A stretch of DNA of 64,000 bases from a virus: IMG/VR virus record IMGVR_UViG_3300005739_000002, positions 34,019 through 98,018 of that record; one strand, 5' to 3'. Positions 19,129 to 53,203 of the stretch are shown piece by piece (positions within the stretch are counted from its first letter, which is position 1; each line of letters opens with the position of its first letter). A model generated the notes under the pieces. That model was not told the origin of the DNA. It searched no databases and saw only the letters and a program-made list of their open reading frames with translations. A program made the position numbers and the translations under genes.

Positions 19129-19204
19129 GCGGACGTAGCGCAGTTGGTAGCGCGGAACCTTGCCAAGGTTCAGGTCGCGGGTTCGACCCCCGTCGTCCGC
19201 TCCA
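19129..19204 (+). tRNA. tRNA-Gly(GCC)
   Basis: acceptor GCGGACG/CGTCCGC, anticodon arm GAACC-TTGCCAA-GGTTC, encoded CCA. Confidence 0.95.
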
Positions 19205-25187: not shown

Positions 25188-25518
25188 AGGCCAAAGGGAA
25201 TCTCAGAAGCACGAGGCTCGACTAGCAAAACGTGTCGGTGGTAAGCGCAATGCTGCCAGCGGTGCATTTTGGAGTCGTAAGGGTGATGTGCGGTCTAAGG
25301 ACTTGTTAATAGAACACAAGTGGACTGGCAAAACTCAAGTAACTGTCAAGGCAGCAGTACTAGAAAAGATTGTCACCGAAGCCATCGTTGATAGTCGGAC
25401 ACCTGTCCTCGGGTTCAGTCTTAACAATAACAATTACATATTGCTAACTGAAGATGATTTTCTGGAAATGCGCCAGAATCTTCAGGAGCATAATTGTACG
25501 ACGACACAGGTCACGTAG
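25177..25518 (+). CDS. Holliday-junction resolvase-like PD-(D/E)xK nuclease
   Basis: E..SGA..KGDV..LIEHK. Confidence 0.7.
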   Translation: MKSKGQRESQKHEARLAKRVGGKRNAASGAFWSRKGDVRSKDLLIEHKWTGKTQVTVKAAVLEKIVTEAIVDSRTPVLGFSLNNNNYILLTEDDFLEMRQNLQEHNCTTTQVT

Positions 25519-25811
25519 AAGGCTGGCGACATAAAGCCAAGTGCCGCGGTATGGATACCGAGCTTTGGTTTCCCCCTCGTGATAAAACTAAATATAGAAA
25601 AGTAGCAACGATATCTAAGGGCGTCTGCTTTGGACGTGATGGTCTGCCAGAGTGCCCTGTACGCAAGCAGTGCTTGCTGTATTCGGACCAGATGGATGAG
25701 CAGCATGGTATCTGGGGCGGCCTTAGCCATCGTGAGCGTAACGCTCTTAAAAGAAAACTAAAAAAAGACGGAACCACTTTAAAGGAATACCTTGATGATG
25801 ATAGGGTGTAG
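25494..25811 (+). CDS. whiB: WhiB-family transcription factor
   Basis: four Cys, WFP, GIWGGLS..ER. Confidence 0.9.
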   Translation: MYDDTGHVEGWRHKAKCRGMDTELWFPPRDKTKYRKVATISKGVCFGRDGLPECPVRKQCLLYSDQMDEQHGIWGGLSHRERNALKRKLKKDGTTLKEYLDDDRV

Positions 25812-35898: not shown

Positions 35899-36369
35899 GT
35901 GGCAATACTTGTATTTATGGATGAGGTTATGCGTAACCACAAAAAGCATCCAATCGTAGAGGGCTTGGCCTTTTATAAAACTTTAAAAGAAAAGCACCGC
36001 GTACTTATCCTTTGTGAAGATAAAGATAAAGCAGACCACTGGCTTAGACAACAGCGCATTAATAATTACGACGATTTAGTAGCGCTTGAGGATGTTCCAT
36101 TTCCAGGTGACAATCCAAAACTTAGACATGTGGAGTGGGTACGTTCTCAGGGACCCGTAGAGTATGTAATTACGTCAGACCCAGACCTAGCAGTTAAACT
36201 ATTGGTCAGGGGTATAACAACTATAATGTTCCTTCACCCTATCTATACCAATGAAAACTTCCGACCAGATGGCCTAAAGCGTGGGTTCAAACCATGGGCG
36301 CAGATACAGGACGAACTAATAAGACAGCAGGACGAGTACGATAACGACCAGCGTAGAGACCGTATCTGA
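35899..36369 (+). CDS. HAD-like fold protein (degenerate)
   Basis: N-terminal ILVFMDEV, PIVEG, VEYVITSDP resemble HAD motifs I and IV. Confidence 0.45.
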   Translation: MAILVFMDEVMRNHKKHPIVEGLAFYKTLKEKHRVLILCEDKDKADHWLRQQRINNYDDLVALEDVPFPGDNPKLRHVEWVRSQGPVEYVITSDPDLAVKLLVRGITTIMFLHPIYTNENFRPDGLKRGFKPWAQIQDELIRQQDEYDNDQRRDRI

Positions 36370-37814
36370 TGCGTATTGTTTATATGGGATGTGAGGTCCC
36401 CAGCAATAGGACTTTGCTGGAAACTACAACAGCAAACCACCTTGGAGTGAGCTTTCAGGGTTTAGTACGTAGAGGCCTTCCAAAGACAAAAGAATATATA
36501 TTTGATAACTATTTCCCCAAGGATTCCTATATTTATCTATACCCAGGACTACCCCTGAATGCCAAGCTGGGCCGCCTGGAGCTAGAGGAGTTTGCAGCTG
36601 CCTATGAGCACTTTGTAGCCATAAATATAGATAGATTAACTTTATTTGCAGAACTTAATTATGGATTTGTGGACCCAGCCTTTGTAGAGCAACAGCGCAA
36701 AACAGCTTGGGCTTCAGTCCCACCTGGCAAGTTTTTACCAGTCTGGAACCCAGACTTAGGTTTAGATAACCTCAATAGGCTTATAAATAATTATTTAGAT
36801 ATAGGAATACCAGGGGCATCCATAGAGTCAGAGACCAGGCTAGCCGCCACCACCAGAACCGCCACCAAACGTCAGGGAACCAGATTCCATGCATTAGGTT
36901 GCGCCAAGCCAGATAACCTTCGTTCAATACAAGCGGAGACCGCCCACACCCTTTCATGGCTATCGCCCATGACGCATGGTGAGACAATCGTCTGGGATGG
37001 TACTAGGCTTGCTAGATACCCAAAGCGTATGAAAGAACAGGCAAGAGCCCGTTACAATCATATTTACGAGAAGGCTGGCTTGGACGCCGACCTTATCGCA
37101 GAGGATGACCCAAAAGAAGTTTGCCGTCTGGCAGTGTGGTCATATGAACGATTCGAAGAGAGGATTAACAAGGTGGGCGAGTCTTATTATCAGGATGAGG
37201 AAGGTCAGCCAAATACGGAAATTGCACCCTTGGATGCTGATAATAAGGGTATGGAAATGCGGAAACTTTCACCACGCAATCCTGATGAAATTCGCAATCT
37301 TCCAGTGTTTGGATACGATGTTAAGACAGATGTAGACGCTGATGGTGTCATCTCAGATAACACCCATGTAACTTCACAGGCAAGCACCCTACGTCAGTGC
37401 GACACCTGCTTTGTAGCGGCTAACTGCCCTGCTTTTAAACCGCAATCTATGTGTGCTTTTAAGTTACCGATAGAGGTAAAGAGTAAAGAACAACTTAAGA
37501 GTCTTATCAATGCAATCATAGAAATGCAGGGCCAAAGGGTTGCTTTCATGCGTTTTAGCGAAGAAATGAACGGTGGATATGCAGACCCTAACGTATCCCA
37601 AGAGATAGACCGCTTGTTTAAATTAATCAAAACCGTCAAGGAACTAGACGATTCCAGAGAGTTTATTCGCATGACTGTAGAGCGTCAGGGCTCGGCAGGA
37701 GTGCTATCTTCCATCTTTGGAGATAGGGCCCAAGTGCTTAAAGAACTGCCTGATGGTGGGCTTACAGAGGCAGAAACTACGGAGGTAATACGCAAAACTA
37801 TAGAAGATAAGTAG
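36369..37814 (+). CDS. hypothetical protein: TGT/DpdA-like barrel remnant plus Cys4 C-terminal domain
   Basis: FLPVW, RFHALG..TAHTLSW resemble the HxLG..SxDSxSW motif; CDTC..CP..C. Confidence 0.4.
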   Translation: MRIVYMGCEVPSNRTLLETTTANHLGVSFQGLVRRGLPKTKEYIFDNYFPKDSYIYLYPGLPLNAKLGRLELEEFAAAYEHFVAINIDRLTLFAELNYGFVDPAFVEQQRKTAWASVPPGKFLPVWNPDLGLDNLNRLINNYLDIGIPGASIESETRLAATTRTATKRQGTRFHALGCAKPDNLRSIQAETAHTLSWLSPMTHGETIVWDGTRLARYPKRMKEQARARYNHIYEKAGLDADLIAEDDPKEVCRLAVWSYERFEERINKVGESYYQDEEGQPNTEIAPLDADNKGMEMRKLSPRNPDEIRNLPVFGYDVKTDVDADGVISDNTHVTSQASTLRQCDTCFVAANCPAFKPQSMCAFKLPIEVKSKEQLKSLINAIIEMQGQRVAFMRFSEEMNGGYADPNVSQEIDRLFKLIKTVKELDDSREFIRMTVERQGSAGVLSSIFGDRAQVLKELPDGGLTEAETTEVIRKTIEDK

Positions 37815-39971: not shown

Positions 39972-40214
39972 ATGAATCCAACAATATATACAAAACCAGA
40001 CTGCCCAGCATGCGACGCGACTAAAAAATACTTTAGTAAATACAATGTCGAGTATGTATCCGTTGATATTACGGAAAATGACGAGGCTCTAAACCTTATT
40101 AAATCTTTAGGGTATAACTACACGCCAGTAGTGGTGGTAAATGAATCTAACCATTGGCAGGGCTTTCGACCAGATAAAATTGCGTCATTAAAAACAATTA
40201 AACATGCTATTTAA
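39972..40214 (+). CDS. nrdH: NrdH-like glutaredoxin
   Basis: YTKPDCPAC.ATK, PVVV, WQGFRPDKI; follows RNR. Confidence 0.9.
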   Translation: MNPTIYTKPDCPACDATKKYFSKYNVEYVSVDITENDEALNLIKSLGYNYTPVVVVNESNHWQGFRPDKIASLKTIKHAI

Positions 40215-40476
40215 TAATAAAGCCTCTTGTGAAGGTCTTGAATCTGACATATTTTTTCCAGACGAAGCCAGTCACTATCAGTATTTATCAACAGTTAAAA
40301 AAATGTGTGATAATTGTTCAGCAAAATTAGAGTGCTTTGATTATGCTATAGAAAACGCGGTTCAGGGTATATGGGCAGGAACCACCTTTAATGAACGAGA
40401 CGCGTACAGACTAAAACATGGAATAGTCGCTAAAGGCGTTGTGCCAAATAATTTAGTTTACGACCATATCGCTTAA
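40204..40476 (+). CDS. whiB: second WhiB-family transcription factor
   Basis: C..FFP..CDNC..C..GIWAGTT..ER. Confidence 0.85.
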   Translation: MLFNNKASCEGLESDIFFPDEASHYQYLSTVKKMCDNCSAKLECFDYAIENAVQGIWAGTTFNERDAYRLKHGIVAKGVVPNNLVYDHIA

Positions 40477-46679: not shown

Positions 46680-46762
46680 AAGACCCCTTCGTATGGGTGG
46701 CGGTGTTGCCACGCCCCGAGCCTACCCTATTTCCGTATTTAAGTATCTCTCCTTCTCCAATT

Positions 46763-46781
46763 CTCAGGAAGTTATCCACAA
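46763..46781. promoter_or_regulatory. extended DnaA box 1
   Basis: CTCAGGAAG-TTATCCACA (46772-46780). Confidence 0.8.
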
Positions 46782-46911
46782 CCCCCTATCCTGATAACTC
46801 TCTGCGATAAGGCTATTAAATCTGGCCGTCCACCCACTCACTTAATACGGCTATTAAGCAGTAGCCTTCTCTCTCTCTCCTATCACGGCCGACGGCTTTT
46901 GGCAACTCTCT

Positions 46912-46930
46912 CTCAGGAACTTATCCACAG
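46912..46930. promoter_or_regulatory. extended DnaA box 2
   Basis: CTCAGGAAC-TTATCCACA (46921-46929). Confidence 0.8.
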
Positions 46931-46931
46931 G

Positions 46932-47073
46932 GTTTGTGTTGGCTCAAGGCTTGCAGCGTTGAGCCAATAGCAATGACCGCCATTTCTATATTAGAAATGG
47001 CGACATTTAGGGTGGGTACGAGTATTTCGGTATAATTTAATACCGAAATACGAGAGGGTGGGCCAACACAAAC
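46932..47073. repeat. cassette-boundary palindrome, type C (multi-hairpin)
   Basis: GTTTGTGTTGGC..GCCAACACAAAC enclosing CGCCATTTCTA/TAGAAATGGCG and GTATTTCGGTAT/ATACCGAAATAC hairpins. Confidence 0.8.
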
Positions 47074-47130
47074 TTTCCCGCAGCGGCAGCAGAGCCGTGA
47101 TTTGGTCTCCACGGTCTCCACCTCACCACC

Positions 47131-47175
47131 AAAAAGCCCTACTAGATGGCATCCTGCCTGTCTAATAGGGCTTTC
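47131..47175 (-). terminator. intrinsic terminator
   Basis: AAAAAGCCCTA.TAGA..TCTA.TAGGGCTTT, U-tract on minus strand. Confidence 0.65.
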
Positions 47176-47190
47176 TAGGGGGTATGTCCG

Positions 47191-47676
47191 CTAGCAGATT
47201 TCGAATCCACCGCTATCTGCTAAGAACTCTGCGAACTCTCGTACGTTCTCTGTTGAGAAGGGATAGTGTTTCTCCCAAGGTTCCTTCTCACGGGTTCCAT
47301 TACACGAATTACACGGGTCACGGAACTTTACAACGCCTTCTTCATAGTCAGGCCACTCAGGTTTTACCTGAACAATACCCATACCGTCACAGAAGTCGCA
47401 TTTTACATTTGGTAGGCTTTCTAAATAAGCCTTGTATTCCTTCTCATAGGCTTCACATGAGCCGTCTGATAGTTTTATCATAAGGACTTGTGATAGGAGT
47501 TCTGCGCCTTCGGCGCCTAACCCGTCACCGTCGTTGTAGTGCCCACTCACACCATTGACTAGGTCAGGTGCTACACGCTCTACATAATCCCATAGTGGTC
47601 GCCACCACCATACATTATTACGGAAGTACTCCCCTTTCTCGGATTTGGGAGCCTTACCATACACGTCCATACCCAT
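47191..47676 (-). CDS. hypothetical protein with DnaJ-like CxxCxGxG zinc finger
   Basis: MGMDVYG..YFRNNVWWWRPLW; CDFCDGMG, CNSCNGT; SD GAGGT. Confidence 0.7.
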   Translation of the reverse strand: MGMDVYGKAPKSEKGEYFRNNVWWWRPLWDYVERVAPDLVNGVSGHYNDGDGLGAEGAELLSQVLMIKLSDGSCEAYEKEYKAYLESLPNVKCDFCDGMGIVQVKPEWPDYEEGVVKFRDPCNSCNGTREKEPWEKHYPFSTENVREFAEFLADSGGFEIC

Positions 47677-47677
47677 A

Positions 47678-48199
47678 CTACTTACCTCGCTTTCTTTTCT
47701 TACCACCCAATAAGTCCTCGATAGTCATATCTAATAGGGCTATTGGGTCTTCTTTTTCGGCGGCCTCTACGATAGGCGTATTAGGGCGAAGGATTATTAG
47801 CAGGTCGTCAGGTGTATCCAACTCTAACTGATGTAGAAACTTGGCGTAAGTTCCCATTAGCATAGCCATTGGAGTAAAGGCGCCTACTACCCACGCTACA
47901 TGGATAGCCATGCTTGCCGTAGATAGGTCGTCGTCTGTGACTTCCTCGTCGTTCGCAACCTTATCAGCAAGAGTCGAGAAGCCTGTGTTGGCGAGCGCAT
48001 TTATCATATTGCCAATAAACGCCTCGTCCTCACGCATTTTGACCGCCTGTGCCATGATAGCGGTCTTTAGGTTGCCGTCTGATAAGCCTTTCGTACCGTC
48101 AGGCAACTTAGGGTCATACATATCGTTATCAGGGTCGCCCATAAGTTCTATAGACGACATAATCTCAGTAAAGCGCACCTTGCGCTCGCTACTGTTCAT
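47678..48199 (-). CDS. hypothetical protein
   Basis: first gene of cassette; SD AAGGGGG. Confidence 0.65.
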   Translation of the reverse strand: MNSSERKVRFTEIMSSIELMGDPDNDMYDPKLPDGTKGLSDGNLKTAIMAQAVKMREDEAFIGNMINALANTGFSTLADKVANDEEVTDDDLSTASMAIHVAWVVGAFTPMAMLMGTYAKFLHQLELDTPDDLLIILRPNTPIVEAAEKEDPIALLDMTIEDLLGGKKRKRGK

Positions 48200-48263
48200 T
48201 TACTACCCCCTTTGATAGGTGGCGCAACTCTACTCTCACTCTCCGTCATATAGCCATAACACT

Positions 48264-48282
48264 CTCAGAAACTTATCCACAG
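48264..48282. promoter_or_regulatory. extended DnaA box 3
   Basis: CTCAGAAAC-TTATCCACA (48273-48281); TAGAGT -10 40 nt downstream on minus strand. Confidence 0.8.
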
Positions 48283-48299
48283 GCCATCTCTCAAGCCTA

Positions 48300-48397
48300 T
48301 TTTGTTTGTGCTGGGGGCTTTTGGGCATAGGTGGGTTGAAAACCGTACCTATGCAGAGATAGCTACTTATTACCAAAAGCCCCCAGCACAAACAAAA
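48300..48397. repeat. cassette-boundary palindrome, type A
   Basis: 25-bp perfect arms TTTTGTTTGTGCTGGGGGCTTTTGG / complement; inner GCATAGGT/ACCTATGC; bulge GATAGCTACTTATTA. Confidence 0.9.
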
Positions 48398-48425
48398 AGG
48401 CCGCGAGGGAAGTCGCGGCCTTCTT
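48394..48425 (-). terminator. intrinsic terminator whose U-tract is the palindrome arm
   Basis: AAAAAGGCCGCGA..TCGCGGCCTT. Confidence 0.75.
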
Positions 48426-48442
48426 ATGACTAGGGGAAGAGT

Positions 48443-48925
48443 CTAGTCTTGTTCCTCTGCAGAGAACTCAAGATTGCTGATGATATCGCCGTCATCATAA
48501 TCAACCTCAACTGAATCAGAGGTACGTCCTTCGCCGTCGTATTCGATATCGAATGTTAGGCGTGCATTGTGAATGCTAAGGTTATCTTCTACTTCTGCGA
48601 TAGCGTCTTCCTCGGTATCGGCTTTTACATCAGTTACCTCTAGAATGTTTTCATAGAGGTAGGAAACCGTAACAGTCCAAGTACGGATTAGTGTGTCGAG
48701 GGTAGGCCATGAAACAGAGCCAACCTTCTCAGCGATAGCGTTGTATATCTCAAGGCCTTGCGCCTCGGTAACAACCTCGTTAGTAACCTTATCTCTTAGT
48801 ACATCTAAGGTTATAGTGTTGATAATGCCAACTGATTTCTCATGTTGGTTGTGACGTGTGGCAAAGACTTCGTTGTCTACCTCTTCTTTGGTATAAACTG
48901 TCTCACCGTTTATCGTATGTGACAT
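48443..48925 (-). CDS. acidic hypothetical protein
   Basis: single-gene cassette. Confidence 0.65.
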   Translation of the reverse strand: MSHTINGETVYTKEEVDNEVFATRHNQHEKSVGIINTITLDVLRDKVTNEVVTEAQGLEIYNAIAEKVGSVSWPTLDTLIRTWTVTVSYLYENILEVTDVKADTEEDAIAEVEDNLSIHNARLTFDIEYDGEGRTSDSVEVDYDDGDIISNLEFSAEEQD

Positions 48926-49001
48926 TTTCTCTCTTCCCGTAGACGCACCTTGCGCCCACGGGTCGAGTCTAATATAACTCTTTTTACAGGTCTCTCACGC
49001 T

Positions 49002-49020
49002 CACAGGAAGTTATCCACAG
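49002..49020. promoter_or_regulatory. extended DnaA box 4
   Basis: CACAGGAAG-TTATCCACA (49011-49019); TAGACT -10 39 nt downstream on minus strand. Confidence 0.8.
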
Positions 49021-49040
49021 GCTCTCTCCTAGCCCTATTA

Positions 49041-49130
49041 TGTTTGTGCTGGGCTTGCTGGTATAGGCAGTGATGATAATCCGTACCTATACCGTGATAG
49101 CTACTTATTACAGCAAGCCCAGCACAAACA
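49041..49130. repeat. cassette-boundary palindrome, type A
   Basis: 20-bp perfect arms TGTTTGTGCTGGGCTTGCTG / complement; inner GTATAGG/CCTATAC; bulge GATAGCTACTTATTA. Confidence 0.9.
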
Positions 49131-49157
49131 AAAGCCCCCGCATCTCTGCGGGGGCTT
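49130..49157 (-). terminator. intrinsic terminator
   Basis: AAAAGCCCCCGCA..TGCGGGGGCTT. Confidence 0.75.
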
Positions 49158-49169
49158 CGTAGTCTTATC

Positions 49170-49565
49170 TTAGAGCCATTGTGATACAGACTTATAGAGG
49201 CTCGCAGGAACATCAGGTTGTGCGGTCATACCTAGCAACTTGATAGTCTTACGGAGTTCCTCGTAATCGTTATCGTTGAACATGCCGTCAGGGCGGTCAG
49301 GGCGTTCTACCTGAGTAGGCAGTTTATCCTTATCTACCTTGAACTCAATTTCCAAAATACCATTCCACGAACGATAGTTAGTGTTATGGATTTCTAACTT
49401 ACCTGACTTTGCCAATGCGATAATCTTACTAGCAAAGGCTTCTTGTGCTTTGTTGTATTTTTCCTCTGCCTTCTTGTAGTCGGCACGGAACTTGTCTTGC
49501 TCGGCTAATCTGCCGTTTAGTGCGTCTAATAGGACTAGCCTATCTACTTTGATGGTTGTAGCCAT
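49170..49565 (-). CDS. hypothetical coiled-coil protein
   Basis: purine-rich SD; followed by terminator. Confidence 0.65.
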   Translation of the reverse strand: MATTIKVDRLVLLDALNGRLAEQDKFRADYKKAEEKYNKAQEAFASKIIALAKSGKLEIHNTNYRSWNGILEIEFKVDKDKLPTQVERPDRPDGMFNDNDYEELRKTIKLLGMTAQPDVPASLYKSVSQWL

Positions 49566-49592
49566 CTACCTTCCCTTTCTTATAGTTGTTGG

Positions 49593-49797
49593 TGAGCAGT
49601 TGTTCTACGACATACTCAGGTCGTTAGGATTACGCAGGTTTGCACCTACTATCCCCCTAACCCTAACGGGGTCTTGCCCTTTATTTTTCTAATCGTTGGC
49701 TACGATTACCCTTCCGTTCGGCGGTTCGCCTACTAGGCGGGATACTGATAAGCCTTTTATCCACTTGCTCAGGTGGTTCTCACGGGGGGTGAGAAAG
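49593..49797 (-). ncRNA. candidate structured RNA/leader with two compact pseudoknots
   Basis: CCAC-CTGAGCAA-GTGG..GGCTTA and ACGAC-CTGAGTAT-GTCGT..CTGCTCA; GCAA tetraloop hairpin between them. Confidence 0.5.
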
Positions 49798-50220
49798 TCA
49801 GAGTAGGTCTTTATCTACGCTGAAAAGGTCTTTTAGTGTGTTGAGTTGTTTAGCGTATTTGCGGGCTAGTGCCTTGTAGTAATCACGCTCGGCTTCTAAG
49901 TCCGAGATTAGTTTATCTACTTTGCTAATAGCCTTATCGGTAGTCATGCGCTCTGAACGCTTTGTGTATTTGCGTTTAGTGCGTTTGATAGCGTTAGCAG
50001 GATTATGTGTCCCTACATGTATGGACATCTGTGCCCTTGTTGGGGTCATGTGTCCGCAGATTTGGCAACCGAACATAGTTGTTCCGTCTAGCCATAGCAG
50101 TTCCACCATGTTGTGGAAGTAATGTCCCTTTGCCATTGGATTAGGCACGGGTTGGGATTGTAAAGGTGCGATGTTATTTCGCAAGAACTTTTGTTTGATA
50201 GTATCACCCCCCTCGTTCAT
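49798..50220 (-). CDS. C2H2-like zinc-finger protein (start uncertain)
   Basis: CQICG..H...H followed by basic segment and coiled coil. Confidence 0.6.
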   Translation of the reverse strand: MNEGGDTIKQKFLRNNIAPLQSQPVPNPMAKGHYFHNMVELLWLDGTTMFGCQICGHMTPTRAQMSIHVGTHNPANAIKRTKRKYTKRSERMTTDKAISKVDKLISDLEAERDYYKALARKYAKQLNTLKDLFSVDKDLL

Positions 50221-50337
50221 CTCTTTAGTGTTGCTCCTTTAGGAGTTGGTCGGCGACCATGTTGCTCTCCCTTCGTTAGTGTGGGCTTGTTCCCACTGAC
50301 TTATTCAACCATAATCTCAATAATCTATTTCATGGCA

Positions 50338-50356
50338 CTCAGGAAGTTATCCACAG
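50338..50356. promoter_or_regulatory. extended DnaA box 5
   Basis: CTCAGGAAG-TTATCCACA (50347-50355). Confidence 0.8.
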
Positions 50357-50369
50357 GTATCTCGTAAGG

Positions 50370-50449
50370 TTGTTTGTGTCGGGGCTTATGGGTGCATATA
50401 TCTATATAGCACCCGTAACACACACGCCCATAAGCCCCGACACAAACAA
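50370..50449. repeat. cassette-boundary palindrome, type B
   Basis: 23-bp perfect arms TTGTTTGTGTCGGGGCTTATGGG / complement; inner TATATAGC and ACACACGCCC. Confidence 0.9.
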
Positions 50450-50475
50450 AAAGCCCCGCCTTTCGGCGGGGCTCC
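50448..50475 (-). terminator. intrinsic terminator
   Basis: AAAAAGCCCCGCC-TTTC-GGCGGGGCT (GAAA tetraloop on minus strand). Confidence 0.8.
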
Positions 50476-50487
50476 TTGTTAGGCTTG

Positions 50488-51498
50488 TTAGACGCCAGCC
50501 AATTCGCGGACGGCGCGGAGTATGCGCCCCTTCTCGGCATTGACCACTGGGTCAAAGCCACTTGCCGCGCCCTTGAGCGCCTCGCCATTGGCGGTGCGAC
50601 CAGTGCGGAAATAGTCAATGCGCTCAGTGAGAGCATTGAGAGCGCCCCAATAGGTGCCCTTGATTGTTGATTGCGTAGGGGATACATGGTAAATATCCTC
50701 TAGGAGGTCGCGCTTAGCCTGCCACTTGGTCATAACTTGTGGCGCAACCGCATTGGCGTCGGGTTGCGGATAAATGGCATTGACCAATTTATCCCAATCC
50801 GCATTGGAGAGAGGAGCCTCGAAAAGAGACTTTGCGATGGACTCAAAAGAATCCATGTGAGCGAAGGTGAGACCTAGCACGCGACGCGCTTCCGCAATGC
50901 GACCCTCGACCTTGAGAGTGTGGCGCAACTTGAATGATTGCTTACATCCAGCCAGCGCCATGTTGAGCGTATTTTGGCAGACAACACGAACGGGCGTGAT
51001 TGACGCTTGAACGCTTGCGCTCCCGTCATGGGAGGTATGAACGAGCAGATAGGTGAGAGTCTTATCATTCGCCCCTTGAGGGTCGATGATGAACTCACGA
51101 GGAACGACAAGGCTACCGAAAACAACCTTGCCATTCTTGATTGAGCCAGCAGATTCCCAACTGGCGCCCCCGTCGAGAATGTTATCCCCGAATGTGAAAA
51201 GTTCCTCATTCTGGAATACGCGATAACGCTTACCGACAACCGCGAGGACATCGGTTCCAGCGTCGAACGGATTGGTGCGAACGACCATGTGAAGGTCGGT
51301 CTTTGAGCGATAGCCAGCGGGATACTGGACATCCTCTAGGCGAACATTCCAGTTCGCTAACTTTGCCGAATCCAACATGACATCGGTTGTCACATGTTCA
51401 TCAGCAGAAAAGATACGATTGGCGAGACCATGCCATGCGGGAGCGCCACGCAATGCGAACGCCACCTCACCGCCTTGAATCTCTAAATCGTGAGCCAT
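50488..51498 (-). CDS. DUF932 / TIGR03299-type phage-plasmid protein
   Basis: MAH..PAWHGL, Y..FQN, ESAGS..G, SHDGS, TPVRVVCQNTL, RHT, GT.WGA.NA.TE..D. Confidence 0.9.
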   Translation of the reverse strand: MAHDLEIQGGEVAFALRGAPAWHGLANRIFSADEHVTTDVMLDSAKLANWNVRLEDVQYPAGYRSKTDLHMVVRTNPFDAGTDVLAVVGKRYRVFQNEELFTFGDNILDGGASWESAGSIKNGKVVFGSLVVPREFIIDPQGANDKTLTYLLVHTSHDGSASVQASITPVRVVCQNTLNMALAGCKQSFKLRHTLKVEGRIAEARRVLGLTFAHMDSFESIAKSLFEAPLSNADWDKLVNAIYPQPDANAVAPQVMTKWQAKRDLLEDIYHVSPTQSTIKGTYWGALNALTERIDYFRTGRTANGEALKGAASGFDPVVNAEKGRILRAVRELAGV

Positions 51499-51571
51499 AA
51501 CAGCCCCCTTCTATGCGAGACCTTCTCGCATGCGCTCACCCTATCAGATACATCTCTCAACCCTATTAGTT

Positions 51572-51590
51572 CTCAGAAAGTTATCCACAG
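51572..51590. promoter_or_regulatory. extended DnaA box 6
   Basis: CTCAGAAAG-TTATCCACA (51581-51589); TAGGGT -10 37 nt downstream on minus strand. Confidence 0.8.
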
Positions 51591-51596
51591 GGCGCG

Positions 51597-51686
51597 ATGT
51601 TTGTGTTGGGCTGCTTATGTGTGTATATGAAGATATATAGCGAAATGTTTATACACACACGCCCATAAGCAGCCCAACACAAACAT
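51597..51686. repeat. cassette-boundary palindrome, type B
   Basis: 23-bp perfect arms ATGTTTGTGTTGGGCTGCTTATG / complement; inner TGTGTATA/TATACACA, TATATAGC, ACACACGCCC. Confidence 0.9.
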
Positions 51687-51691
51687 TCTTC

Positions 51692-51705
51692 GTTTCACGT
51701 GAAAC
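51692..51705. promoter_or_regulatory. parS: parS centromere-like site (ParB-binding consensus)
   Basis: perfect intergenic palindrome GTTTCACGTGAAAC, 15/16 match to TGTTTCACGTGAAACA. Confidence 0.8.
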
Positions 51706-51738
51706 AAAAAGGCCCGAGCGGGAAGGTGCTCGGGCCTC
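51706..51738 (-). terminator. intrinsic terminator
   Basis: AAAAAGGCCCGAGC..GCTCGGGCCT. Confidence 0.75.
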
Positions 51739-51758
51739 TTCGTAGGGGGTTTATAACC

Positions 51759-52058
51759 TCACGCCATCGCTGGCGTGAAGATTCGACGGATATAGTTTTG
51801 CTGCTTGCTTGTAGTGACGCTGAACTTCTGATTCACTACGTACCAACCATTGGCCCCATACCATGCGATTGGCGTGCTATATGATAAGACTACGTAGGCG
51901 CCCTCTTTAAAGTCTTCTACTAGTCTACTGTATTCCTCGCCTAGGCGTCCAGGTCCTGGCGTGTAGTTGTAATAACGGCCACTAAGTGAAGAGGCTTCGA
52001 ATGCTTGACGGTTAGCAATGCGCTCCATCGCTTCTTTCTGATTGACCTGCAGTCTCAT
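51759..52058 (-). CDS. hypothetical protein
   Basis: YVVLSYSTPIAW..W..KFSVTTSKQQ; ATGA coupling. Confidence 0.7.
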   Translation of the reverse strand: MRLQVNQKEAMERIANRQAFEASSLSGRYYNYTPGPGRLGEEYSRLVEDFKEGAYVVLSYSTPIAWYGANGWYVVNQKFSVTTSKQQNYIRRIFTPAMA

Positions 52059-52249
52059 GCGTCCTCCCTTGTACTGTGCCAGTAATCGGCCGCGGCTTCT
52101 GCCCTGTCCGCGTAATCCTGCTCACCCTCACTGTAACCCTTGAGGTAACCTGATATCTTGCCAGACCTGTAGGCGAAGAATCCGACAACAAGAGCAACGA
52201 GGATGTCAACGAGTAAGTTGAAACCGTTATAGAAGATGATTTCATTCAC
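52055..52249 (-). CDS. small membrane protein
   Basis: one TM segment then GY..GY..G; GTGA coupling at 52249. Confidence 0.55.
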   Translation of the reverse strand: MNEIIFYNGFNLLVDILVALVVGFFAYRSGKISGYLKGYSEGEQDYADRAEAAADYWHSTREDA

Positions 52250-52383
52250 GCTAGCGCTTTCCTTTCCTCGTCGGCGCATGTGTAGCAGATACGCCCGACG
52301 AATTCCAAAACACCTAACACGAACGCATCAACGCCACTGTGTACAATATTGCCGTCCTGCGTGGTACCGCATTTATAACACAT
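52246..52383 (-). CDS. small Cys-pair protein (45 aa)
   Basis: MCYKCG..CYTC; SD AGGGG. Confidence 0.5.
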   Translation of the reverse strand: MCYKCGTTQDGNIVHSGVDAFVLGVLEFVGRICYTCADEERKALA

Positions 52384-52458
52384 TTATAACCCCTAATCTG
52401 TGAGCCCCTTGCTCACTGGGATAAACTTAGCAGGCCTGGGATATATATCAATAACCCT

Positions 52459-52477
52459 CACAGAAAGTTATCCACAG
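52459..52477. promoter_or_regulatory. extended DnaA box 7
   Basis: CACAGAAAG-TTATCCACA (52468-52476); TAAGTT -10 38 nt downstream on minus strand. Confidence 0.8.
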
Positions 52478-52500
52478 GCAAACTCTCCTCCTATAACTCC

Positions 52501-52570
52501 CTATATTAGAACGGGGTGGGAGGGCCAACACAAACATGCGAGAGCCCCGCGCCTTGCGACGCGGGGCTTC
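52501..52570. repeat. half palindrome (type C remnant) plus terminator
   Basis: CTATATTAGAA..GGGCCAACACAAACA without left arm, then AGCCCCGCG..CGCGGGGCT. Confidence 0.6.
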
Positions 52571-52580
52571 GCTCTACTAC

Positions 52581-52955
52581 TTATGAAATTGTCGTCGTGC
52601 TCATGAGGCGGTCATCCTGAGCCTCGCCTACTTTTTCGTACCAACGGGTATCGCGCTGGATGAATGCTGCGATTATGTTAGACCATAGATTTACATGGTC
52701 AGAGCCATAATAAGGGGCGATTTTGATGTCGCATAGTTGCGTCATGTAATCGAAGTCCCATAGTTGGAACCCCTTATCATTTACCACTAGGCGGTATCCA
52801 CCTTGAGGTAATAGTTGAGAGTAAATTGGCATGGATACCAATTCGCGCTCGCGGTCAATATCTACCTCGCCGAATTCATAGAGCGAGTGTTCCGCGTTTA
52901 GTCTGCCCTCTAGTTCAGGGGTCAGACCTCCTGCGAAAGTGTAAAGAATAGTCAT
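52581..52955 (-). CDS. hypothetical protein
   Basis: first gene of the minus-strand block. Confidence 0.6.
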   Translation of the reverse strand: MTILYTFAGGLTPELEGRLNAEHSLYEFGEVDIDRERELVSMPIYSQLLPQGGYRLVVNDKGFQLWDFDYMTQLCDIKIAPYYGSDHVNLWSNIIAAFIQRDTRWYEKVGEAQDDRLMSTTTIS

Positions 52956-53047
52956 CTGACTAAACCTTCCCTACTTGGGGCGCTTACTCCTTGTTCAGCG
53001 CCCAGTGAGATAAACTTATGGCATAACCCTATTAGATACAACCGACA

Positions 53048-53086
53048 CTCAGAAAGTTATCCACAATCACAGAAAGTTATCCACAA
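53048..53086. promoter_or_regulatory. tandem extended DnaA boxes 8 and 9 (20-bp direct repeat)
   Basis: CAGAAAGTTATCCACAA x2 (boxes 53057-53065, 53077-53085); TTGTAT-N17-TAAGTT promoter follows on minus strand. Confidence 0.85.
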
Positions 53087-53203
53087 CCTAACCCTCTACC
53101 TGAGGTTGAGGGGTAGGGGTTAGACGACACGCCCGACCGCGTGGGTGGCAGGTAACATGAGTACCTATTTATACATTTAGTAGGCAGTAGCCTATAATAG
53201 AGT

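Follow-up and report, generated by a model that had tools for sequence, protein, structure and literature searches.

Why does a phage carry nine perfect DnaA boxes, all pointing the same way, among a run of its own small genes? The DNA analysed here, a stretch of 64,000 nucleotides (the window), is the final 64 kb of the 98,018-bp IMG/VR record IMGVR_UViG_3300005739_000002, which has direct terminal repeats and was judged complete. Exact copies of TTATCCACA occur nine times in the window, at 46772, 46921, 48273, 49011, 50347, 51581, 52468, 53057 and 53077, all on the + strand. From the arrangement of these sites, we consider it somewhat probable that they mark early-gene cassettes resembling promoter early stem-loops (PeSLs), that the cassette promoters carry a site for the host DnaA protein, and that titration of DnaA is a likely side effect. 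Early gene expression in this phage would then probably be tied to host DnaA.

Nine boxes and their distance to predicted promoters

The initial annotation had described nine co-oriented intergenic boxes, and this description was reproduced: dinucleotide-preserving shuffles of the window contained 0.49 copies of TTATCCACA on average and never more than 2, and all of the boxes lie between real genes of a minus-strand gene block. The few open reading frames that overlap boxes cross terminators and hairpins and appear spurious. The motif CWCAGRAAS, which had been said to precede each box, lies directly 5' of 9/9, and a search of the window for the combined 18-mer with up to three mismatches returned the same nine sites and added none. 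When the exact scan was extended to the whole genome (98,018 bp), as the initial annotation had suggested, one extra TTATCCACA was found on the opposite strand, outside the window. The boxes are 149-1352 bp apart, save one pair at 20 bp, and no oriC-like cluster (several boxes within a few hundred bp) was found among them, unlike in other viral contigs, where boxes form 11-bp arrays; no search was aimed at an unwinding element.

Read along the minus strand, the box module is CC-TGTGGATAAS-TTYCTGWGAG, that is, CC-TGTGGATAAC followed by a second element, TTYCTGWGAG, which we call box B. To describe its position, we counted offsets from the first T of TGTGGATAA and took the -10 hexamer to start at -12. 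In six units TANNNT starts at offsets 46, 47, 47, 48, 49 and 51, in agreement with the claim that six boxes have a -10 hexamer 37-42 nt downstream. A seventh unit instead carries TTGCCA-17-TAGGAG, whose second hexamer starts at offset 47, and three units have TTGNNN at offset 24-25, with a spacer of 16-17 nt to the -10. The upstream DnaA-like box (box A) thereby covers about -59 to -51 of the predicted promoters and the extension about -49 to -40, placing the 20-mer at about -59 to -40. The earlier placement of the boxes just upstream of predicted promoters with weak -35 elements therefore held, and a good -35 is often lacking. At the first promoter, two 20-bp modules stand in tandem.

We retrieved 20 related IMG/VR loci with the ATPase gene at the end of the array. 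Whole-contig comparison showed the genomes to be collinear, with about 50-97% protein identity, and four of them (G001, G002, G004 and G005) have 5-11 co-oriented TGTGGATAA boxes confined to the matching early region. Enrichment of TANNNT was evaluated in the best 4-nt window of offsets, with p corrected for the number of windows tried. This 4-nt range held 5/8 promoter-proximal boxes in this phage (offsets 46-49, corrected p 5e-3), 6/9 sites in G002 (offsets 48-49, corrected p 9e-4), 7/8 sites in G001 (offsets 67-69, corrected p 1.5e-5) and 7/11 sites in G004/G005 (offsets 69-72, corrected p 1e-3). The sites thus fall into two distance classes (about -59 or about -79), which are about 20 bp, or two helical turns, apart. 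Since the distance to the -10 is fixed and that to the upstream hairpin varies from 2 to 21 nt, the box appears coupled to the downstream promoter and not to the hairpin.

Two other assignments of the promoter elements were rejected. The box itself could not serve as the -10 element, as the relatives do not conserve a T at position six of TAASNN. Promoters for a phage RNA polymerase were also set aside, as no RNA polymerase gene was found among the proteins examined, although no search was aimed at one. At 53013-53030 and 52424-52441, the -10/start region reads TAAGTTTATCYCASTG and is followed by a GC hairpin in the 5' untranslated region; start regions of this type also occur at promoters of relatives (e.g. 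L067 around 4760).

Box A, its partners in relatives and the candidate host

The identification of the 9-mer as a true DnaA box, asserted in the initial annotation, gained support from the flanking nucleotides. The 9-mer matches the DnaA consensus TTATNCACA in 9/9 boxes of this phage and in 40/40 sites from five phages, which were collected by an exact search. These 40 sites share the consensus gccTGTGGATAAcT and nothing beyond it, and box A can accordingly be written as the 13-mer gCCTGTGGATAACt. In E. coli oriC, the mnmG-mioC gap contains two perfect boxes, R1 cccTGTGGATAAcaa and R4 tacTGTGGATAActc, both with the flanks of box A. In addition, a tandem-box scan of IMG/VR returned at least 120 contigs, and we analysed 80 loci, mostly unrelated to the phage and with GC contents of 28-65%. 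Among the 274 boxes of these 80 contigs, C was present at -2 (49%), -1 (61%) and +10 (73%), and T at +11 (72%). Many of the 80 loci carry dense 11-bp arrays of CCTGTGGATAAC, with up to seven such boxes within 130 bp in unrelated contigs of 37-65% GC (L152, L134, L186, L147, L172, L170 and L175); these arrays look like DnaA-dependent origins or DnaA traps.

The Pfam and PHROGs searches bear on what might bind the boxes. The Bac_DnaA, Bac_DnaA_C and sigma region 4 domains are absent from the whole phage genome, and no helix-turn-helix, sigma, DnaA-like or other DNA-binding domain was found in the 30 proteins encoded at 40.8-62.5 kb. Because the phage encodes no DnaA, the host protein is the likely binder of box A. 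The DnaA-box identity and the activator-like position of box A thus appear well supported by these comparisons.

The second box differs among the relatives. Box A is followed by box B in this phage, by TAGGTGAACA in G002, by two GTGAACA-type repeats with 11-12 bp spacing in G001, and by an imperfect inverted copy, AATCGTTATA, in G004/G005. The complete relative G003 and its group have the same cassettes with no box A, and instead carry the box-B-like TYCCTGTGAR together with TCGGSCGTGTCG (box E). The combinations at homologous promoters are A+B, A+C, A+C+C', A+D and B+E. Since each half of the 18-mer is common to a different set of relatives, the 18-mer consists of two modules. The initial annotation had suggested that the extension may bind a co-factor; its status as a separate module stood, in that relatives keep box A and swap the extension and one keeps an extension-like box without box A, and a co-factor is now one option among several. 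Box B is possibly a second site for some factor, or a weak or half DnaA site. Read as a CRP half-site, it lacks a second half-site. Box C (the GTGAACA repeats of G001/G002) may represent a weak DnaA box, TTGTTCAC, which departs from TTRTNCACA at a single position, or else a direct repeat of the response-regulator type; in box C, the position pairing with the conserved C varies. In the G003 loci (L046, 2900-10000, and also L047 and L048), box E ends 2 nt before the -35, and a few of the B boxes read TGTGAATAA, which is compatible with a relaxed DnaA consensus.

Beyond these relatives, the exact 18-mer had 45 matches in IMG/VR, all single and close to the estimated chance number, so it is not repeated in the other IMG/VR contigs found. 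Several tandem-box loci that share a few proteins with the phage have box A joined to yet other boxes.

The host was approached through the phage genes. The phage has two WhiB-family genes (25494-25811 and 40204-40476, both +), and its host is therefore taken to be actinobacterial. Its tRNA-Gly(GCC) at 19129-19204 is 96-100% identical to that of nearly all of 81 sampled genomes of one Actinomycetota order (1.2-2.2 Mb), with 100% identity in four and 96-97% in most of the others. In 201 genomes spread over the phylum, a control that includes eight unpublished ones (G090, G107, G137, G171, G177, G209, G237 and G263) and is used as a summary statistic only, the best identity was 95% and most were 83-91%. 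The GC content is 45% in the phage and 44-48% in sampled regions of five genomes of this order. From genome size and GC content, the order would correspond to the streamlined freshwater acI lineage.

In the candidate order, CTGTGGATAAC occurs in 74/81 genomes, about 4x as frequently as a control word. Its complete genomes have CCTGTGGATAAC(T) immediately ahead of dnaA and also between dnaA and dnaN, and the dnaA/oriC boxes (with dnaA and dnaN confirmed by Pfam) are cagCCTGTGGATAACtt and taaCCTGTGGATAACTgtg, often beside a weaker box. The box-A flanks are thus found in E. coli oriC, in unrelated phages and in the probable host order. A candidate host chromosome (1.3-1.4 Mb) has 5-17 perfect 9-mers, of which only 1-5 are beside dnaA, and the phage has nine perfect boxes in the array and ten per genome. 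One phage genome would therefore roughly double the top-affinity sites per cell, which makes a sink effect plausible.

Cassettes and their proposed working

Along the minus strand, each unit runs from the stop codon of the upstream gene through a GC-rich hairpin with a T run, a long hairpin and a spacer to the box module, and from there through promoter-like hexamers, a small hairpin in the 5' untranslated region and a purine-rich ribosome-binding site to the start codon. The long hairpins are about 75-90 nt, always end in GTTTGTG / CACAAAC, differ in their interiors and fold 6.5 to 11.3 standard deviations better than shuffles; the same ends are found again in relatives, also in those that lack box A. 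Lying between terminator and promoter module, they would escape transcription from the adjacent promoter. Between the boxes, the collinear relatives differ in which genes they have and in what order: few or none of them share the genes at 48443, 52581 and 53204, and in G002 and G003 two genes are reordered. The initial annotation had proposed DnaA-activated early promoters and/or a DnaA sink, which is partly supported; the PeSL-like context of terminator, hairpin and promoter had been missed. The features are listed in the table.

Features of the cassette array (window coordinates; z, fold stability relative to shuffles)
Feature	Position	Strand	Details
Distal A+B module, first leftward promoter, TGTGGATAAC TTTCTGTGAT	53066..53085	-	about -79 to -60; 20 bp upstream of proximal module
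Proximal A+B module, first leftward promoter	53046..53065	-	-35 TTGTAT 53036-53041; -10 TAAGTT 53013-53018; 17-nt spacer, offset 47
A+B module	52457..52476	-	-35 TTGATA 52446-52451; -10 TAAGTT 52424-52429
A+B module before DUF932 gene	51570..51589	-	-10 TAGGGT 51538-51543, TGA preceding
A+B module	50336..50355	-	-10 candidates TATGGT 50308-50313 or TAAGTC 50299-50304
A+B module	49000..49019	-	-10 TAGACT 48966-48971
A+B module	48262..48281	-	-10 TAGAGT 48227-48232
A+B module	46910..46929	-	-35 TTGCCA 46900-46905; -10-like TAGGAG 46877-46882; about 130-nt unit without clear gene
A+B module before AAA_5 ATPase / VWA operon	46761..46780	-	-10 TAGGGT 46724-46729
Long hairpin, fixed ends	48304..48393	-	z -9.5; between terminator 48399-48420 and box A
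Long hairpin, fixed ends	49042..49129	-	z -6.5; after terminator 49131-49158
Long hairpin, fixed ends	50372..50447	-	z -8.4; after terminator 50447-50465
Long hairpin, fixed ends	51599..51684	-	z -11.3; after terminator and parS-like palindrome 51692-51705
Partial forms of long hairpin	46932-47073 and 52529-52535		
Array of self-contained cassettes, putatively early	46712..53085	-	each: promoter module, 1-2 small genes, terminator, hairpin
Box E, single copy TCGGGCGTGTCG	53125..53136	-	module used by G003 group at every early promoter

In the mechanism that we favour, the nine boxes would form the upstream part of a repeated early-promoter module serving eight promoters, and box A, as a canonical high-affinity DnaA box, would most likely be occupied by host DnaA. 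Box B would be a second site, swappable among relatives, for another host or phage factor or for an extension of the DnaA oligomer. DnaA located at -55 or -76, on one face of the helix, would assist or gate RNA polymerase as at nrdAB-type promoters, and early expression would thereby follow the replication and energy state of the host. The upstream position and the poor -35 elements fit activation better than repression, although the direction of the effect is a guess. During its replication the phage would draw DnaA from the host origin, each phage copy bringing in perfect boxes in about the number found on a host chromosome; such titration is likely a consequence, and may have been selected.

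A wider scenario can be put forward only tentatively, and we think it rather doubtful: in a large family of freshwater actinobacterial phages, host DnaA would be the common switch for all early promoters, with the lineage-specific second box as co-input, so that the phage launches only in hosts with active DnaA and strips the host origin of DnaA as it replicates. Such a system would combine a sensor of the host cell-cycle state and a host-replication shut-off in one, with portable promoter modules as its building blocks. Should DnaA indeed bind these promoters and control them, the whole early programme of a phage would be wired to the host replication initiator. This would give a simple account of how phages of slow-growing, streamlined lake bacteria might sense the fitness of a host for infection, and would represent a new means of halting host replication. 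The range of PeSL-type mobile promoter cassettes would likewise widen from T4-like to actinobacterial phages, and the swappable 10-bp boxes would amount to a natural set of portable promoter inputs.

The array occupies the first 6.3 kb of the minus-strand gene block at 40.6-53.0 kb, in the same direction as its genes. The + strand genes lie at 1-40.5 kb (tail, baseplate, helicase, DNA polymerase I, DpdA-like transglycosylase and ribonucleotide reductase) and from 53.2 kb onward. The inter-box genes are small and mostly without known family (Pfam and PHROGs mostly blank), except for a DUF932 protein and, at the array end, a pair comprising an AAA_5 ATPase and a VWA protein. WhiB proteins act on sigma-A, and those of the phage could participate in promoter control. 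The closest cultured phages are Streptomyces phages, with 40% identity in DNA polymerase I. The gene at 36369-37814 (+) encodes a DpdA-like queuine tRNA-ribosyltransferase, a hint that the phage DNA may carry 7-deazaguanine modifications.

Among sigma-70-like promoters in this region the best is TATACA-17-TATAAT (53170-53198, +), which points rightward from the divergent gap and faces a DUF7004 gene that is found in none of the relatives. An exact 14-mer parS palindrome, GTTTCACGTGAAAC (51692-51705), was considered as a second host-origin motif and rejected, being absent from all 20 related loci or contigs examined; it may be a short insertion after the usual TTTTTGTTT.

Alternative readings and known systems

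Several observations weigh against a role of host DnaA at these promoters. Box A appears dispensable, because the close and complete relative G003 runs its cassettes without it, and more distant relatives have TATAACGATT-type direct repeats with an ATAAC core; such drift of boxes between lineages is typical of phage regulators that co-evolve with their sites. No such array occurs in the Streptomyces phages BRock and NootNoot, distant relatives in culture, which have only 4-7 scattered TTRTCCACA. Box B, at most 5/9 positions of which match, does not appear to be a DnaA box. A scan with an E. coli-type promoter consensus found no excess over shuffles and missed the box-associated promoters; their function is therefore deduced from position and from actinobacterial TANNNT usage, and the promoters are predicted here from TANNNT spacing alone. 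The candidate order is a likely host, as judged from one tRNA, GC content and the WhiB genes. Finally, the scan picks recognisable motifs, and the site of a phage regulator may be identical to the DnaA 9-mer by chance, although the flank match argues otherwise. As a separate observation, the terminal-repeat early region of NootNoot (L110, 1-8224) contains small genes, each with a repeated intergenic unit (a TAGACT-type -10 with upstream TTGTCCG / ATGTCCG repeats and palindromes); this resembles a cassette system of the same sort with different boxes.

This last possibility of chance identity leads to the reading in which the 20-mer is the operator of a regulator other than DnaA (an early shut-off repressor or middle-gene activator of the phage, or another host factor) and its likeness to a DnaA box is coincidence or mimicry. 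The lineage-wise change of boxes, from the combinations listed above to the distant TATAACGATT, would suit co-evolving pairs of regulator and site, and the single orientation in intergenic gaps recalls the stoperators of Cluster A mycobacteriophages. A set of several small proteins recurs in the B-carrying G003 and in no other relative compared; no gene, however, tracks box A, in that none of the phage proteins occurred in every A-box relative while being absent from G003 (four relatives compared, two of them incomplete). Moreover, the likeness to DnaA boxes takes in the 13-mer flanks, which recur in unrelated phages and at the origins of E. coli and the candidate host, the 30 proteins at 40.8-62.5 kb lack helix-turn-helix, sigma and DnaA-like domains, and the first-expressed promoters cannot need a protein that is not yet made, unless it is carried in the virion. 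We therefore regard such an operator as unlikely. That the boxes serve mainly as a DnaA sink that blocks host initiation, with their placement at promoters secondary, seems improbable to us. Titration loci such as datA and the DnaA-box clusters of B. subtilis are compact clusters, whereas the array is spread over 6 kb; a sink needs neither a fixed helical distance to the -10, nor co-orientation, nor one box per promoter, and G003 manages without box A. For a sink speak the ten perfect boxes per phage genome vs 5-17 per candidate host chromosome, and plasmid-borne boxes titrate DnaA according to work cited in PMC8203912.

Two further readings place the function outside promoter activation. If box-bound DnaA were an orientation-dependent roadblock or insulator against read-through from the upstream cassette, comparable in this to stoperators, the location of each box just after a terminator and long hairpin, co-oriented with transcription, would make sense, and Schaefer and Messer reportedly described a DnaA roadblock of asnC and gua transcripts in E. 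coli. The strong terminators are already in place, however, and the box keeps its distance to the downstream -10 and not to the upstream hairpin (2-21 nt), which leaves this reading very improbable. The repeats might also matter as DNA, for PeSL-type recombination or as a replication start, without protein binding at box A being the selected function. The differing gene content and order between the boxes of collinear relatives are of the kind that PeSLs mediate by shuffling (PMC2839356, PMC4122927). Recombination, in contrast, requires homology and no particular 13-mer equal to a flanked DnaA box, and the hairpin ends would be equally usable; an origin would have its boxes tightly clustered beside a readily melting tract, whereas the nine here are 0.15-1.4 kb apart. 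We give this last reading hardly any credence, and retain DnaA-responsive promoters in PeSL-like cassettes as the preferred explanation.

The array can finally be set against known systems. The stoperators of L5 and Bxb1 are asymmetric 13-14 bp sites that lie intergenically in one orientation, genome-wide, and bind the phage immunity repressor. The present sites resemble them as many one-orientation intergenic sites in an actinobacterial phage, but are confined to 6.3 kb plus one stray copy, have fixed promoter positions and match the site of a host protein. Both activation and repression by DnaA are established for promoter-proximal boxes such as those of E. coli dnaA and nrdAB, and at nrdAB the protein was reported to stabilise the complex of RNA polymerase and DNA (PMC8203912). 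The likeness lies in high-affinity boxes close upstream of a promoter; here, in contrast, the promoters belong to a phage, stand eight in a row with the predicted site at a fixed distance, and carry a second, swappable module. At lambda pR/ori-lambda, DnaA stimulates transcription with a reported RNA polymerase contact (Szalewska-Palasz et al. 1998, as cited in PMC8203912). Host DnaA acting on phage gene transcription would be common to both systems, the action being predicted here, whereas lambda offers a single site context tied to origin activation, with a proposed beta-subunit contact, and the present phage repeats its upstream module.

The injection-stop region of T5-like phages has eight DnaA boxes in one cluster within a long untranslated region, for which a membrane hold was proposed (Davison, bioRxiv 10.1101/866236). 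In both cases a lytic phage has several conserved DnaA boxes in its early region, accompanied by palindromes, repeats and inverted repeats, and both proposals are sequence-based; the difference is one box per promoter at a fixed distance here and a single cluster in T5. Our full-text searches of the literature returned no description of DnaA boxes at each early promoter of a phage, and lambda pR/ori-lambda and the T5 injection-stop boxes are the nearest published cases. PeSLs of T4-type phages are units of early promoter and stem-loop terminator that flank unknown genes in variable regions (PMC2839356, PMC4122927). The cassettes are likewise composite units of terminator and putative early promoter flanking small unknown genes whose content varies among close relatives, and they would function like PeSLs without membership, as this actinobacterial phage is not of the T4 type (Streptomyces phage kin, WhiB). 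Taken together, the cassettes appear close to known kinds, DnaA-regulated promoters and PeSL-type cassettes, and what is new relative to the known PeSLs is the extra long hairpin with fixed ends and the DnaA-box module.

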